Assembly (NCBI GenBank): GCA_964655075.1
Contig: CAZZLD010000006.1
Span: 21,045 to 85,044, forward strand
DNA: 64,000 nt
DNA from: an uncultured Candidatus Bathyarchaeia archaeon
Lineage (GTDB): Archaea > Thermoproteota > Bathyarchaeia > Bathyarchaeales > Bathyarchaeaceae
Direction of reading: 5' to 3'
Of this stretch, positions 10,623 through 21,194 are shown in pieces; position 1 is the stretch's first letter, and the number at the start of each line of letters is the position of its first letter. The position numbers and the translations under genes are program-made. The notes under the pieces were generated by a model that saw only the letters and a program-made list of their open reading frames with translations, was not told where the DNA came from and ran no database searches.

Positions 10623-11669
10623 ATGATTCCGGAGAAGCGTCTGTCGCTGAAGAAAACGGTTCCTCTTTTGTTAATCGGCTTACTGATCTTCTTTTTGTAT
10701 CTCTATTTCTTAGGCTTCAAATCCATCGCGAAGAGCCTTCAAAGTACAAACTTGATCTATTACTCGCTGACGTTCGTCGTTGTTGCGTTTGACGTGCTCG
10801 TCTATTCTCTAGCTTGGCTGTATTTCCTGCGTCCCCTTTCAGTTAAAGCCTCCCTAAAAGACGCGTTCCTGTTTGTGTGGATCGGAAACTTCGTTGACAT
10901 TTTGGTTCCGGCGGAATCCATTAGCGGCGAGGTCTCTAAGGCTTATCTCATGTCCAAAAGGTCTGGGGGGAACACGGGGAAGGTTGTGGCTTCTGTTGTA
11001 GGTCATAGGGTTCTTAACATGACGATAACTTTAACCGCGTTAATCATCGGCTCAGTGCTTTTCATCGTTTATTATCCCGTGGAAATCTCAGGCTTCGCTT
11101 TGTTTCTTTTATTCGCTGTAACCGTCGGAACAGCCATTGCCGTGATTTTCTTAATCATCTTATGCACAAAAGAAAGCATGACCCGGAGGCTTAGCGATTG
11201 GATTTTGCGGTTTGCCGCGTTCATTTCTAGGGGGCGTTGGCAGCTAACCAACCTGCGGTCAAGAACCCAAGAGATGTTGAGCACCTTCCATCAAGGAATC
11301 AAAATCCTCGGCAAAAACCCGAAGGCTCTAATCCTGCCGGTTGTTTTCACCATAGCCGCCTGGGTCTTCAACCTCCTAGTGCCTTTCTTGGTCTTCGTCT
11401 CCCTTAAGCATCTCGTTGGTTTAAGCGTGATAATAATCGTTTATTCCCTCAGCTTCGCAATTCGAGCTATTCCGGTCGGAGTTCCCGCCGACATAGGTTT
11501 AGCAGAATCCGTCATGACCGGCTTCTACATATTGCTCGGCGTACCAGCAAACATCAGCGCAGCAGCAACCATTCTAATAGCAATCTCAACCATCGGATTC
11601 AAACTTCTCGTGGGCTACATGGCAGTCCACTGGGTAGGCGTCAAAATCCTGACGAATAATAACCAATAA
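10623..11669 (+). CDS. Flippase-like / lysylphosphatidylglycerol-synthase-TM-region family membrane protein (UPF0104/TIGR00374-like)
   Basis: 348 aa with about 8 predicted TM helices and a basic loop in the middle. The family assignment rests on overall topology and recollection only. Confidence 0.5.
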   Translation: MIPEKRLSLKKTVPLLLIGLLIFFLYLYFLGFKSIAKSLQSTNLIYYSLTFVVVAFDVLVYSLAWLYFLRPLSVKASLKDAFLFVWIGNFVDILVPAESISGEVSKAYLMSKRSGGNTGKVVASVVGHRVLNMTITLTALIIGSVLFIVYYPVEISGFALFLLFAVTVGTAIAVIFLIILCTKESMTRRLSDWILRFAAFISRGRWQLTNLRSRTQEMLSTFHQGIKILGKNPKALILPVVFTIAAWVFNLLVPFLVFVSLKHLVGLSVIIIVYSLSFAIRAIPVGVPADIGLAESVMTGFYILLGVPANISAAATILIAISTIGFKLLVGYMAVHWVGVKILTNNNQ

Positions 11670-11753
11670 CTGCCAACAATTGTCTACTTAAAACGTTTTT
11701 ATCCGAGACGCCCAAATAAAGAGAAGGGAATATCGTCCTCGGAGTCCTCTGCC

Positions 11754-13157
11754 ATGACAAACTTGCACTGCAGCCAATGTTCAGCAATTTTTGAGCCAAT
11801 TCCCCCTCAAGCCAGATGCCCAAAATGCGGAGGGCTCCTAGAATACATCTATGATTTTGACCGCCTGAAGAAAGCTGAACTCGCGGGTTCCCTCAGTTTT
11901 TGGAGGTATAGGCCTTATCTCCCCGAGGTTAAAAACGTGGTTACCATGGGAGAGGGTGGAACGCCCTTGCAACAAGCTAAACGCCTCGCGGGCGCAGTGG
12001 GTCTGAAAGCGGTTTATCTGAAGGATGAAACACGGAATCCCACGGGCAGCTTCAGAGACAGGTGCACGGCGCTGATGGTTTCAAACGCAGTTGACCACGG
12101 TTACGAATCGGTGGTTTGTGCCTCAAACGGAAACTTAGGCGCCTCCCTAGCTGCTTACTGCGCAAAATCGGGGCTTCTCTGCCACATCGTTGTTCCCGAA
12201 TTGGTGGACATGGGCAAGTTAGCCCAGATGCTGATTTACGACGCCGTAATAGAGGAACACGGCGAAACCGTTGACCGCTCTATTGAACGGGCGGAAGCTT
12301 TAGCGAAGGAAACGGGCTGGTATCAGGCTACTGCTGAACTGAATCTACTCGCAGTTGAAGCGCAAAAAACCATCGCCTACGAAACCGTTGAGCAACTTGG
12401 CGTTCCCGACTGGTTCATAGCTCCCATGGGAAGCGGCGGAACCCTCTACTCCATCTGGAAGGGCTTCAAAGAGGCGCAAACACTAGGGCTCATCGATAAG
12501 ACGCCGAAAATGGTCGGAGTTCAAGCTGAAGGATGCGCCCCCATCGTCGAAGCGTATCTAAAGAAGGAAAATAAGCCCTCGGAGGTCTCTAGGTCTGCAA
12601 CTCACGCCTTAGGCATCCTCGTGGAAAAACCTTTGAACGCGAAATGGGCTGCGGAAGCAATATCAACCTCTAAAGGGACTGCTGTTTCAGTGGCAGACTC
12701 CGAAATCATCGAGGGCGAACAGGAAATTGCGAGGCTTGAAGGCGTCTTCGCGGAACCAGCGAGTTCAGCCACCATAGCCGCGCTAAAAAAACTGGCAGGT
12801 CAAGGCGACGTAGACAAGCAGGACAGCGTGGTTTGCCTGATAACCGGGAGCGGACTGAAAGCCACCGATGTGCTTCAAGCTTTGACTAAGAAGCGGAAAA
12901 CCGCCGTCGTCGGCTTGGAACTGAGCACAAAGGAGAAAATTCTGCGGATTCTGAGCGAAAAGGAAACCTACGGCTACGACCTGTGGAAAAAACTGGGCAA
13001 AAACATGACGCGAGCCGCTGTTTACCAACATCTGAACAACCTTTCAGAGAGAGGGCTAGTGACGATCTATAAAAAAGAAGGGAGAAAGTACTTCACGGTT
13101 ACCGAGCGGGGAAAAAGAGTGTTACACGCCATTTCTGAACTGAAGGTTCTGCTTTAG
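11754..13157 (+). CDS. Threonine-synthase-fold (PLP fold type II) protein lacking the Schiff-base Lys, with N-terminal zinc ribbon and C-terminal PadR-like wHTH
   Basis: The N-terminus is CSQCS...CPKCGG. The ThrC core has GEGGTPL, ETRNPTGSFRDRC (canonical NPTGSFKDRG), CASNGNLGASLAAY and MGSGGT. The C-terminal ~75 aa ETYGYDLWKKLGK...VYQHLNNLSERGLVTIYKKEGRKYFTVTERG is PadR-like. Confidence 0.8.
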   Translation: MTNLHCSQCSAIFEPIPPQARCPKCGGLLEYIYDFDRLKKAELAGSLSFWRYRPYLPEVKNVVTMGEGGTPLQQAKRLAGAVGLKAVYLKDETRNPTGSFRDRCTALMVSNAVDHGYESVVCASNGNLGASLAAYCAKSGLLCHIVVPELVDMGKLAQMLIYDAVIEEHGETVDRSIERAEALAKETGWYQATAELNLLAVEAQKTIAYETVEQLGVPDWFIAPMGSGGTLYSIWKGFKEAQTLGLIDKTPKMVGVQAEGCAPIVEAYLKKENKPSEVSRSATHALGILVEKPLNAKWAAEAISTSKGTAVSVADSEIIEGEQEIARLEGVFAEPASSATIAALKKLAGQGDVDKQDSVVCLITGSGLKATDVLQALTKKRKTAVVGLELSTKEKILRILSEKETYGYDLWKKLGKNMTRAAVYQHLNNLSERGLVTIYKKEGRKYFTVTERGKRVLHAISELKVLL

Positions 13158-13223
13158 TAAAATTTAAATAGTAAAGTTGTAACTATACTATTTTTGTTTT
13201 CATAAGACTCGGAGAGAGCCAAC

Positions 13224-13763
13224 ATGCAAAAGAAGCCGATGAGCAAAAATAAAACCGTGGTAACTTCAGCATTTTGCGGCGTCATGGCGGCCCTCGTTTT
13301 CGCGGCAACCACAATTGTCCAAATACCCGTTCCAGCGACAGGAGGCTACATAAACGTTGGAGATTTAATGGTCTTTGTATCAGCTCTTCTCTTCGGTCCT
13401 ATTGTTGGAGGGTTCGCTGGAGGCGTCGGGTCAGCCCTCGCCGATTTGCTTAGCCCTTTTTCATTTTACACCCCTTACACTTTGGTTATAAAAGGTGTAG
13501 AAGGAATTATTGCAGGGAAAATTGGAAAGAGTGGAAAAACGTGGATGCCCATCTTGGCGGTAATTATTGCTGGAATTGAAATGATCACGGGGTACTTCAT
13601 TTTTCAGGTCTACTCATTCGGTTTAGGAGCAGCAGTTACTGAGCTCCCAGGAAACATATTTCAGGCAAGTTTTGGGGCAGTTGTAGCACTTCCATTATAC
13701 CTCGCAGTAAAGAAGATGCTTCCGACGACTTTTGAAAACCTGAAAAACATCATCAAAGGTTGA
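13224..13763 (+). CDS. ECF-transporter S-component-like membrane protein
   Basis: 179 aa with about 5-6 TM helices. YINVGDLMVFVSALLFGPIVGGFAGGVGSALADLL resembles ECF S components (PF07155-like). The substrate is unknown. Confidence 0.55.
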   Translation: MQKKPMSKNKTVVTSAFCGVMAALVFAATTIVQIPVPATGGYINVGDLMVFVSALLFGPIVGGFAGGVGSALADLLSPFSFYTPYTLVIKGVEGIIAGKIGKSGKTWMPILAVIIAGIEMITGYFIFQVYSFGLGAAVTELPGNIFQASFGAVVALPLYLAVKKMLPTTFENLKNIIKG

Positions 13764-13849
13764 GACTTCGTACCGTAGGTCACATAGAAAACGTCGACTT
13801 CGAAGCCCTTTTAATTACTTGTTGATAAGATGAAATCAGGGAAGAAACT

Positions 13850-14581
13850 TTGATTGTTCCTGTGAATTTGGAATTTGCTGCGAAGGATGTAGTTAAGGCT
13901 GTTCAAAGAGGAGACGTAATAATTGTCATTGACGTTTTAAGGTGCTCCTCCACCATCATCGTGGCGTTAACAAACGGCGCGAAGGGCATAATTCCGATTG
14001 AAACCGTGGAAGAGGCTCGAGGTCATCGCCAAGACCACCTTGATTTCATCTTGGCGGGTGAAAGAAAGGGACTGAAACCTGAAGGGTTTGATCTTGGGAA
14101 TTCGCCCCTTGAATTTTCGCATGAGAAAGTGAGCAGAAAGCACATTGTCTTAACCACCACAAGCGGCACACGGGCTATCTCGAAGTCCAAGGGGGCAAAG
14201 TGGGTTCTGATAGGGGCGTTTCTAAACGCTGAGGCTGTTGCTGACGCCGCCTTGAAACTCTCAGGGAAAGAACACGCCGGAATCTCCTTTGTGCTAGCTG
14301 GTAAAAAAGGAAGTTTTTCTCTGGAGGACTTCCTCTGCGCTGGGGCGATTGCAAACTATTTTCCAGCCGACAGGGTTGAGTTTTCTGATGGGGCTTCAGC
14401 GGCAGTTTTAGCCTTTAAACAAGCTCAAATCTCCTTAGAAGAGGCTGTTCAGCGCGGAGGTCACGCGCAGTACCTTGAGAGGCGGGGGCTAGGCGAGGAT
14501 GTGAAGTTTTGTTCGCGGATGAATGTTTTAATGGTTGTCCCGGTTCTTAAGGAAGGCAAGATCGTTCCACTTGAGGTTTAG
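13850..14581 (+). CDS. comB: 2-phosphosulfolactate phosphatase family protein (ComB)
   Basis: TTG start. VIDVLRCSSTII and AGERKGLKPEGFDLGNSP match ComB family hallmarks. Confidence 0.8.
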   Translation: MIVPVNLEFAAKDVVKAVQRGDVIIVIDVLRCSSTIIVALTNGAKGIIPIETVEEARGHRQDHLDFILAGERKGLKPEGFDLGNSPLEFSHEKVSRKHIVLTTTSGTRAISKSKGAKWVLIGAFLNAEAVADAALKLSGKEHAGISFVLAGKKGSFSLEDFLCAGAIANYFPADRVEFSDGASAAVLAFKQAQISLEEAVQRGGHAQYLERRGLGEDVKFCSRMNVLMVVPVLKEGKIVPLEV

Positions 14582-20900: not shown

Positions 20901-21194
20901 ATGAAGAAGCGTCATATATCTAAGGAAGAAGTTGAGCACATTGCGTGGCTTGCACGCGTAGAACTTTCTGAACAAGAAAAAGCCCGCTTCACTGAGCAGT
21001 TCAACCGAATTCTTGACTACTTTAAGAAAATCGACGAGGTGAACGCCAAAAATGTTCCGCCGACCTACCACGTTTTGGAGCTAATCAACGTTTACCGCGA
21101 GGACAAAGTGACACCTTCTCTCCCTCCGAAAGAGATTCTTAAAAACGCGCCTAAGAAAGAGAAGCGGTTTTTCAAGGCGCCCAGAATCGTGTAG
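20901..21194 (+). CDS. gatC: Asp/Glu-tRNA amidotransferase subunit C
   Basis: 97 aa. VEHIAWLARVELSEQEKARFTEQFNRILDYFKKIDEV is typical GatC, and the gene sits directly upstream of gatA-gatB. Confidence 0.9.
   Translation: MKKRHISKEEVEHIAWLARVELSEQEKARFTEQFNRILDYFKKIDEVNAKNVPPTYHVLELINVYREDKVTPSLPPKEILKNAPKKEKRFFKAPRIV

Follow-up and report, generated by a model that had tools for sequence, protein, structure and literature searches.

Among the archaeal regulators of vitamin genes, ThiR is reportedly built from a ThiN-like domain and a winged helix and serves thiamine, and RbkR is said to join a riboflavin kinase to a winged helix. Typical PadR proteins are small, with about 110-180 amino acids, carry the winged helix at their N-terminus and sense phenolic or toxic compounds. 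Proteins of the MocR type consist of an N-terminal GntR-type winged helix and a fold-type I aminotransferase-like domain in which the lysine for pyridoxal 5'-phosphate (PLP) is kept. The regulon of the bacterial member PdxR comprises pdxST, pdxK and pdxU; no MocR regulators occur in Archaea (PMC5320631). Here we describe a gene of an uncultured Candidatus Bathyarchaeia archaeon, the product of which, called REG in the following, combines a threonine synthase (ThrC)-like domain with a C-terminal PadR-type winged helix. The gene lies in a stretch of 64,000 nucleotides, the window, which covers positions 21,045 to 85,044 of contig CAZZLD010000006.1 (assembly GCA_964655075.1), and it is followed by a 24-bp palindrome and by a gene for the S-component of an energy-coupling factor (ECF) transporter. 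A conserved triad of regulator, predicted dyad operator and target gene is found across Archaea. Judged from comparative sequence analysis, REG would be a repressor derived from ThrC that responds to vitamin B6 and acts on the genes for a PdxU2-like importer and PLP synthase, a reading to which we assign a probability of about 0.68.

The gene and its product are composed as follows:

11754-13157, plus strand: whole gene of the predicted regulator (REG), ATG to TAG, 467 amino acids with zinc ribbon, ThrC fold and PadR-type winged helix
11769-11828, plus strand: N-terminal Cys4 zinc ribbon (C6, C9, C22 and C25; CxxC...CxxC), read directly from the sequence
11940-12848, plus strand: fold-type II PLP-enzyme domain (Pfam PALP, residues 63-365, E = 2.3e-75), the proposed sensor
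12054-12056, plus strand: AGA codon for Arg101 at the position of the PLP Schiff-base lysine, in the motif NPTGSFRDR
12870-12920, plus strand: basic linker, residues 373-389, with a KKRK patch; predicted local distance difference test score (pLDDT) <50, yet conserved
12939-13127, plus strand: PadR-type winged helix-turn-helix (Pfam PF03551, residues 396-458), from which the C-terminal helix runs on to residue 466

An earlier note on this DNA had recognized a ThrC-like core in which the Schiff-base lysine is replaced by arginine, an N-terminal zinc ribbon and a PadR-type winged helix at the C-terminus, and profile and structure comparisons bear out this description in the main. REG scores 211.6 bits on TIGR00260 (thrC; cutoff 167.1), and its closest solved relatives are the threonine synthases 2D1F and 2ZSJ (E ~1e-62), the SFKDR of which aligns with SFRDR of REG; identity to solved ThrCs is ~35-38% across the aligned catalytic domain. 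The arginine codon is real, although it lies 2 nt away from the ~12052-12054 originally given. The AlphaFold2 model, for which 41 diverse relatives were used (mean pLDDT 90.9), combines a body like that of ThrC with a linker of low confidence and a well-formed winged helix, consisting of three helices, a wing of two strands and a C-terminal helix with a pLDDT of about 90, and the top Foldseek matches of this model are the threonine synthases 6NMX, 2D1F, 2ZSJ and 1V7C, with template modelling scores, TM(target), of 0.85-0.89. The PadR domain reaches 43.9 bits (E = 2.5e-11) against a Pfam cutoff of 27, and neither a GntR nor an Aminotran_1_2 domain is matched by REG in Pfam. Despite its predicted disorder, no segment of the protein is better conserved among close homologs than the linker (mean 0.93 as compared to 0.82 overall in 120 sequences). 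As for the zinc ribbon, C6, C9 and C25 are invariant and C22 is at least 90% conserved in 41 diverse family members, confirming the motif but not the idea of a fusion: the ribbon is common to the winged-helix proteins and to lysine-bearing relatives that have no winged helix and was thus inherited from the ThrC subfamily.

Is the arginine at the Schiff-base position a sequencing error or a recent substitution? Both can be ruled out. Among the best 120 of thousands of matches in 5.8 billion proteins (68-91% identity, mostly Bathyarchaeota), lysine is absent from this position in 119 and nearly all have arginine instead, which in the related genomic loci is encoded by AGA (23), AGG (19), CGA (6), CGC (1) and CGT (2). 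Since arginine is found in many homologs and is specified by five different codons, it constitutes an old, selected state and not the product of a single recent AAA-to-AGA change. All 120 of these homologs contain both domains in a single protein of about 467 amino acids, and neither in these proteins nor in 80 genome loci was the winged helix seen as a separate open reading frame, the arrangement by which the earlier note would have seen its fusion disproved.

Loss of the lysine and possession of the winged helix go together far beyond the close relatives, as that note had proposed to find out by a homolog survey. An exhaustive HMMER search covering 1.84 billion cluster representatives yielded 150 diverse relatives. 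Among these, 69 of the 71 with a winged helix have no lysine, while the lysine is kept by 75 of 77 proteins without winged helix. The replacing residues in the winged-helix proteins are varied (L 19, R 15, I 14, V 6, then M, T, F, S, Y, A and N). The genuine exceptions amount to two subclades, one in Bathyarchaeia and one in Asgard archaea, in which winged helix and lysine occur together, so that loss of the lysine is typical of the REG family without defining it. Six further lysine-bearing proteins with an apparent winged helix were rejected as ThrCs of NC10 bacteria, in which a LeuA_dimer allosteric domain had been aligned spuriously. These proteins (P0212 and five similar ones of 610-633 amino acids from candidate division NC10) are ThrC-like and end in a LeuA allosteric/dimerisation domain (PF08502), an appendage to the same enzyme that differs from the winged helix. 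Another relative, P0265 (519 amino acids), has valine at the lysine position, no C-terminal winged helix and an N-terminal extension of ~118 amino acids, which has no Pfam match at E<=1e-4 and is possibly a different output domain.

In a rough neighbour-joining tree the winged-helix proteins form one clade nested inside zinc-ribbon, lysine-bearing ThrC relatives. Within this clade one branch has hydrophobic residues at the lysine position and the other is an arginine branch that contains nested lysine subclades. The family ranges over Bathyarchaeia, Odin-, Jord-, Hermod-, Hod-, Thor- and Promethearchaeia, Thermococci, Baldrarchaeia, Nitrososphaerota, Methanomethylicota and others.

What does the domain do once the lysine is gone? 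The cofactor-side motifs are equally conserved in 69 lysine-less winged-helix proteins and in 69 lysine-bearing relatives (N95, P96, T97, S99, F100, D102 and R103; G126 and N127; K155 and Q158; P224, G226 and G228; T364, G365, G367, L368 and K369), and within these retained motifs the lysine itself is the sole replacement. STGNTSAS and NSVNPxR[IL]EGQKT of the ThrCs 2D1F, 2ZSJ and 6CGQ, on the other hand, read SNGNLGAS and AELNLLAVEAQKT in REG. In terms of ThrC structures, the conserved set would contact PLP (phosphate loop and ring nitrogen) and the altered set the phosphate and carboxylate of O-phosphohomoserine. We infer from this pattern that the cofactor side would have been kept, the substrate side remodelled and catalysis lost.

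Records of JGI and NCBI label members of the family "threonine synthase". NCBIfam NF004170 (PRK05638, 'threonine synthase') gives REG 420.2 bits at a cutoff of 421, with residues 4-460 aligned to positions 2-441 of a profile of 442, a match that also spans the winged helix, and P0134 of Thermococcus chitonophagus reaches 799.6 bits end to end. In architecture REG agrees with this profile, and in the broad sense it belongs to the same family. The curated 'equivalog' is thus a model of the lysine-less winged-helix family, representing its Thermococcales members over their full length, and the name is most likely a misannotation. Taken at face value the name would make REG a working threonine synthase, or another PLP enzyme, with a DNA-binding or dimerisation appendage, which would agree with a TIGR00260 score above cutoff, a NF004170 score close to it and the intact overall fold and cofactor motifs. 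However, an enzyme of this kind would have no lysine for the internal aldimine, for which L, I, V, M, F, T, A or N of the other clades are chemically unable to substitute, and the substrate-side residues conserved in solved ThrCs are changed. Moreover, a separate lysine-bearing zinc-ribbon ThrC of 409-425 amino acids without winged helix adjoins the REG gene in several Bathyarchaeia genomes and scores 367 bits on TIGR00260, well above REG, which makes the winged-helix protein a paralog and not the housekeeping enzyme. The conserved linkage to operator and target described below would also be left unexplained by a purely enzymatic role, and we consider that REG is an active enzyme to be extremely improbable. 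The separate ThrC gene stands upstream of REG on the opposite strand in one Bathyarchaeia subgroup (L018:155-1432(-), L019:5882-7141(-), L021, L027, L028-L030 and L051), an adjacency that is consistent with an origin by tandem duplication.

A DNA-binding role of REG would find its counterpart in the DNA directly downstream of the gene, where three further features are placed:

13158-13170, plus strand: TATA-box-like A/T-rich element TAAAATTTAAATA of the putative promoter of the downstream gene, overlapping the left edge of the operator
13168-13191, no strand assigned: 24-bp dyad-symmetric predicted operator ATAGTAAAGTTGTAACTATACTAT; the family consensus ATAGTATAGTTGCAACTATACTAT is a perfect palindrome
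13224-13763, plus strand: predicted target, an ECF-transporter S-component (Pfam PF07155, E = 2e-39), candidate vitamin B6 (pyridoxamine-type) uptake protein

The palindrome sits between the stop codon of REG (13157) and the ATG of the S-component gene (13224); as it ends 32 nt before this ATG, it would cover the start region. Immediately before the palindrome, similar TTTAAA/TTTTTAATA/TTATTAAATA elements are found in related loci. The operator pattern has one match in the 64-kb window, with 0 expected, and no further sites are present there. When 1.15 Mb of related loci were scanned with the core TATAGTTNNAACTATA, allowing up to 1 mismatch, 29 sites were obtained as compared to 0.8 in shuffles, 28 of them just upstream of an S-component gene and the remaining one upstream of pdxS. 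A metagenome scan that used the DNA pattern only led to the same genes: of 120 contigs, 102 have an S-component gene and one has pdxS immediately downstream of the match, four are cut at the contig end beside the regulator, and 13 are unrelated. These 13 off-target matches, which fall at genes for LexA-like proteins, integrases and DUF285 proteins or within fumarase genes on contigs of 30% GC, were judged to be chance matches in unrelated genomes. The fumarase cases are exact matches inside class-I fumarate hydratase genes, in the 5' part of the coding region (L125:2083-2104, L132:1372-1393 and L157:435-456), on three near-identical contigs of an unrelated AT-rich lineage.

The predicted operator stays with the target gene where this is unlinked from the regulator (L011, L019 and L038), and it is found upstream of pdxS-pdxT in L031 and L118. 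In Asgard loci a related dyad, TATAAGTTNNAACTTATA, often in tandem, precedes the S-component gene in 16 of 16 cases despite the convergent orientation of the regulator gene. A third variant, of the kind TATAGG...CCTATA, occurs in divergent intergenic regions of the clades with Leu, Ile or Met at the lysine position, and in L007 such a dyad lies upstream of a regulator-pdxS-pdxT operon. The motif variants therefore follow the regulator clades, with Bathyarchaeia, Asgard archaea and the L-type each having their own version. Could the palindrome nevertheless be something other than the binding site of REG? It might terminate transcription of the upstream gene, form an RNA hairpin in the leader of the transporter gene or bind another regulator, and the winged helix would then have some other function. 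Its position just past the regulator's stop codon and the T-rich run that follows it in the window would suit a terminator, but the T-run is not conserved in other loci and the site accompanies S-component or pdxS genes that are unlinked from, or convergent to, the regulator gene. An RNA hairpin or riboswitch was rejected as well, as compensatory changes are lacking in the dyad arms (covariation score 0.068 as compared to 0.070 in shuffles) and Rfam has no match in 11600-13900. Given that neither covariation nor an Rfam match nor a conserved T-run is seen, the palindrome is read as a protein-binding DNA site, and the agreement between motif variants and regulator clades speaks against a site of another regulator or a different role of the winged helix. 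We regard these alternatives as improbable; REG is very probably a transcription factor that acts at the dyad.

Which signal would such a transcription factor sense? The genes under the predicted operator point to vitamin B6. The S-component gene follows directly 3' of REG also in homologs with different upstream neighbours, and a PF07155-like gene adjoins the regulator in about 62 of the 88 loci compared, which come from many phyla. The two genes are co-directional in Bathyarchaeia and converge in Asgard archaea, and Thor-, Nitrososphaerota- and related lineages have them in divergent orientation. In L007 (Baldrarchaeia) and L031, pdxS and then pdxT, encoding PLP synthase, stand directly downstream of the regulator. 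L031 (DATHCJ010000024.1) is titled 'Candidatus Limnocylindrales bacterium' and carries a Bathyarchaeia-type regulator, 60% identical to REG, together with a Bathyarchaeia-type operator; this contig is probably mis-binned. The window itself contains no pdxS, pdxT, AIR-synthase (aminoimidazole ribonucleotide synthase)-family or canonical ThrC gene within its 64 kb. The sole match of the S-component to a PDB sequence, even at E<=10, is chain S of 4HZU, HmpT/PdxU2 (E = 2e-16). PF07155/COG4720 includes the B6 transporters PdxU and PdxU2/HmpT (PMC9997740), and HmpT binds and carries pyridoxamine (PMC4860826). Of the six conserved HmpT pocket residues (E41, H84, Q87, Y120, N140 and Q143), the last three are identical in the S-component (Y124, N144 and Q147) and E41 is conservatively replaced by D47.

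The principal alternative accepts REG as a transcription factor at the same operator and differs in the ligand, which would be O-phosphohomoserine, threonine, phosphoserine, hydroxymethylpyrimidine (HMP, a thiamine precursor) or riboflavin, the S-component importing that compound. It can draw on four observations: 1) the sensor domain descends from an enzyme that uses O-phosphohomoserine; 2) PF07155 is named for riboflavin transporters; 3) HmpT was initially predicted to be a hydroxymethylpyrimidine carrier (PMC4860826); 4) the AIR-synthase-family gene of the operon is ThiL-like. Against it stand the same operator in front of pdxS-pdxT in two loci, with the operon promoter of L007 as a further instance, the fact that the residues in which REG differs from solved ThrCs are those of the substrate side while the cofactor motifs are retained, and the result that RibU, unlike HmpT/PdxU2, is not matched in the PDB even at E<=10. 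For the amino acids there is the additional obstacle that no ECF S-component of the PF07155 family is known to transport amino acids. A ligand other than B6 is hence unlikely in our view, and a B6 vitamer is probably the signal sensed by REG.

The AIR-synthase-family protein just mentioned has ~335 amino acids (AIRS and AIRS_C) and is encoded after the S-component gene in many Bathyarchaeia loci, for example L002:8048-9067, and after pdxS-pdxT in L031:11042-12049. Its gene is present on 73 of the 120 operator-bearing metagenome contigs. The protein resembles HypE and ThiL, scoring below both curated cutoffs, and may be an unrecognised B6 salvage enzyme, e.g., a kinase. In Thermococci (L071:7940-8998, L074:9339-10438 and L073) the lysine-less regulator is followed by a membrane protein of 107-123 amino acids and by ribose-5-phosphate isomerase A (RpiA), and a different perfect palindrome, CCTAAACTAAGTTTAGG, preceded by a TATTTTAAA element, is found immediately 3' of the regulator gene. 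Ribose 5-phosphate (R5P) is a substrate of PLP synthase. A gene of the ComB-like 2-phosphosulfolactate phosphatase family recurs a few genes downstream of the regulator and S-component genes (13850-14581 in the window; L001:9764-10477; L002:9162-9884; L011), followed by a family-2 glycosyltransferase gene and, in some loci, by a radical-SAM gene.

Several of these observations weigh against a B6-responsive repressor. As to the importer, the B6 assignment derives from family membership and one distant solved homolog, which makes it a prediction; the family includes riboflavin transporters too, and two pocket residues of HmpT differ in the S-component (H84 to K90 and Q87 to E93). Furthermore, no more than about 3 of the roughly 200 loci examined have pdxS-pdxT as target, and the likeness of the AIR-synthase-family gene to ThiL and HypE could point to thiamine instead of B6. 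The Thermococcal members have neither S-component nor pdxST genes nearby, a context that is uninformative for B6. On the side of the protein, the lysine-keeping subclades may work differently or still have activity, and the contacts ascribed to the cofactor- and substrate-side residues are putative.

How could the proposed B6-responsive repressor work? The ThrC-fold domain would offer a reversible, non-covalent binding site to a phosphorylated vitamer of B6, most probably PLP, so that occupancy of REG would follow the free B6 pool. REG is presumably a dimer, as ThrC enzymes and PadR proteins are dimeric and the site is a dyad, and the two PadR-type winged helices of this dimer would bind the 24-bp palindrome over the TATA box and start region, occluding TBP/TFB or the polymerase and blocking initiation of transcription. 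The vitamer-bound form would be the repressing one, this being the logical direction for uptake and synthesis genes, and B6 would act as co-repressor that shuts off its own uptake or synthesis when plentiful. In some genomes the same site would control pdxS-pdxT. The conserved basic linker may transmit the signal or contact DNA, and in the lysine-bearing subclades PLP may be bound covalently, as in MocR proteins. A wider version of this proposal, to which we give even odds, would be a pan-archaeal B6 regulon under a lysine-less pseudo-enzyme, comprising reversible PLP readout, repression of importer and PLP synthase, and the AIR-synthase-family gene product as new B6 salvage enzyme, perhaps a kinase without relation to PdxK.

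The earlier note had gone on to suggest that in this protein an enzyme fold is reused as a ligand-sensing transcription factor. This suggestion gains support from the co-occurrence of lysine loss and winged helix, the nested position of the clade, the existence of a separate ThrC and the conserved operator and target. The analogy to MocR/PdxR on fold type II that it drew has likewise been strengthened, since the predicted targets, a PdxU2/HmpT-like S-component and pdxS-pdxT, are core members of the PdxR regulon. In the full-text literature, with subscription journals largely outside the scope of the search, no description was found of a ThrC-fold/PadR regulator or of any archaeal B6 regulator. 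If the proposal is true, REG fills a gap in archaeal B6 regulation in Bathyarchaeia, Asgard archaea, Thermococci, Nitrososphaerota and other lineages and is the first transcription-factor family on a fold-type II PLP enzyme. It would also be a clear natural case in which removing the covalent lysine turns a cofactor site into a reversible cofactor sensor. For annotation, the naming by NF004170 and JGI means that threonine biosynthesis is predicted too often for uncultured archaea, the orphan ECF S-components of Archaea, a large group, acquire a probable B6 role, and the AIR-synthase-like gene is flagged as candidate for missing steps of B6 salvage. The 24-bp operator offers a directly testable system, and genetic tools exist for Thermococcus.

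Compared with the systems described at the outset, REG is a new, non-homologous family using a known principle, the combination of a PLP-enzyme domain and a winged helix. It shares with MocR/PdxR a PLP-enzyme-like domain joined to a winged helix as sensor, a (predicted) regulon with pdxST and a PdxU-type ECF S-component, and operators built of repeated boxes. Unlike MocR proteins, REG has a fold-type II, ThrC-like domain in which the lysine is usually lost, a PadR-type winged helix at the C-terminus and a zinc ribbon at the N-terminus; as neither domain is homologous to its MocR counterpart, the resemblance is one of functional convergence. With the ThrC enzymes themselves (TIGR00260; 2D1F, 2ZSJ, 1UIM and 6CGQ) REG has the fold and the cofactor-binding motifs in common, but it has no Schiff-base lysine, its STGNT and NSVNPxR motifs are altered and a DNA-binding domain has been added. 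To PadR proteins it is linked by a winged helix above the Pfam cutoff with the same predicted topology and by a palindromic (predicted) operator, while in REG this winged helix is a C-terminal appendage on an enzyme-derived sensor of 390 amino acids. The parallel to ThiR and RbkR lies in the joining of a domain from the cofactor's own enzymology to a winged helix for the control of vitamin biosynthesis and transporter genes. Sensor fold and vitamin are different, the DNA-binding domain is found at the other end of the protein, and the sensor of REG comes from an enzyme that uses the cofactor, whereas those of ThiR and RbkR come from enzymes that make it.

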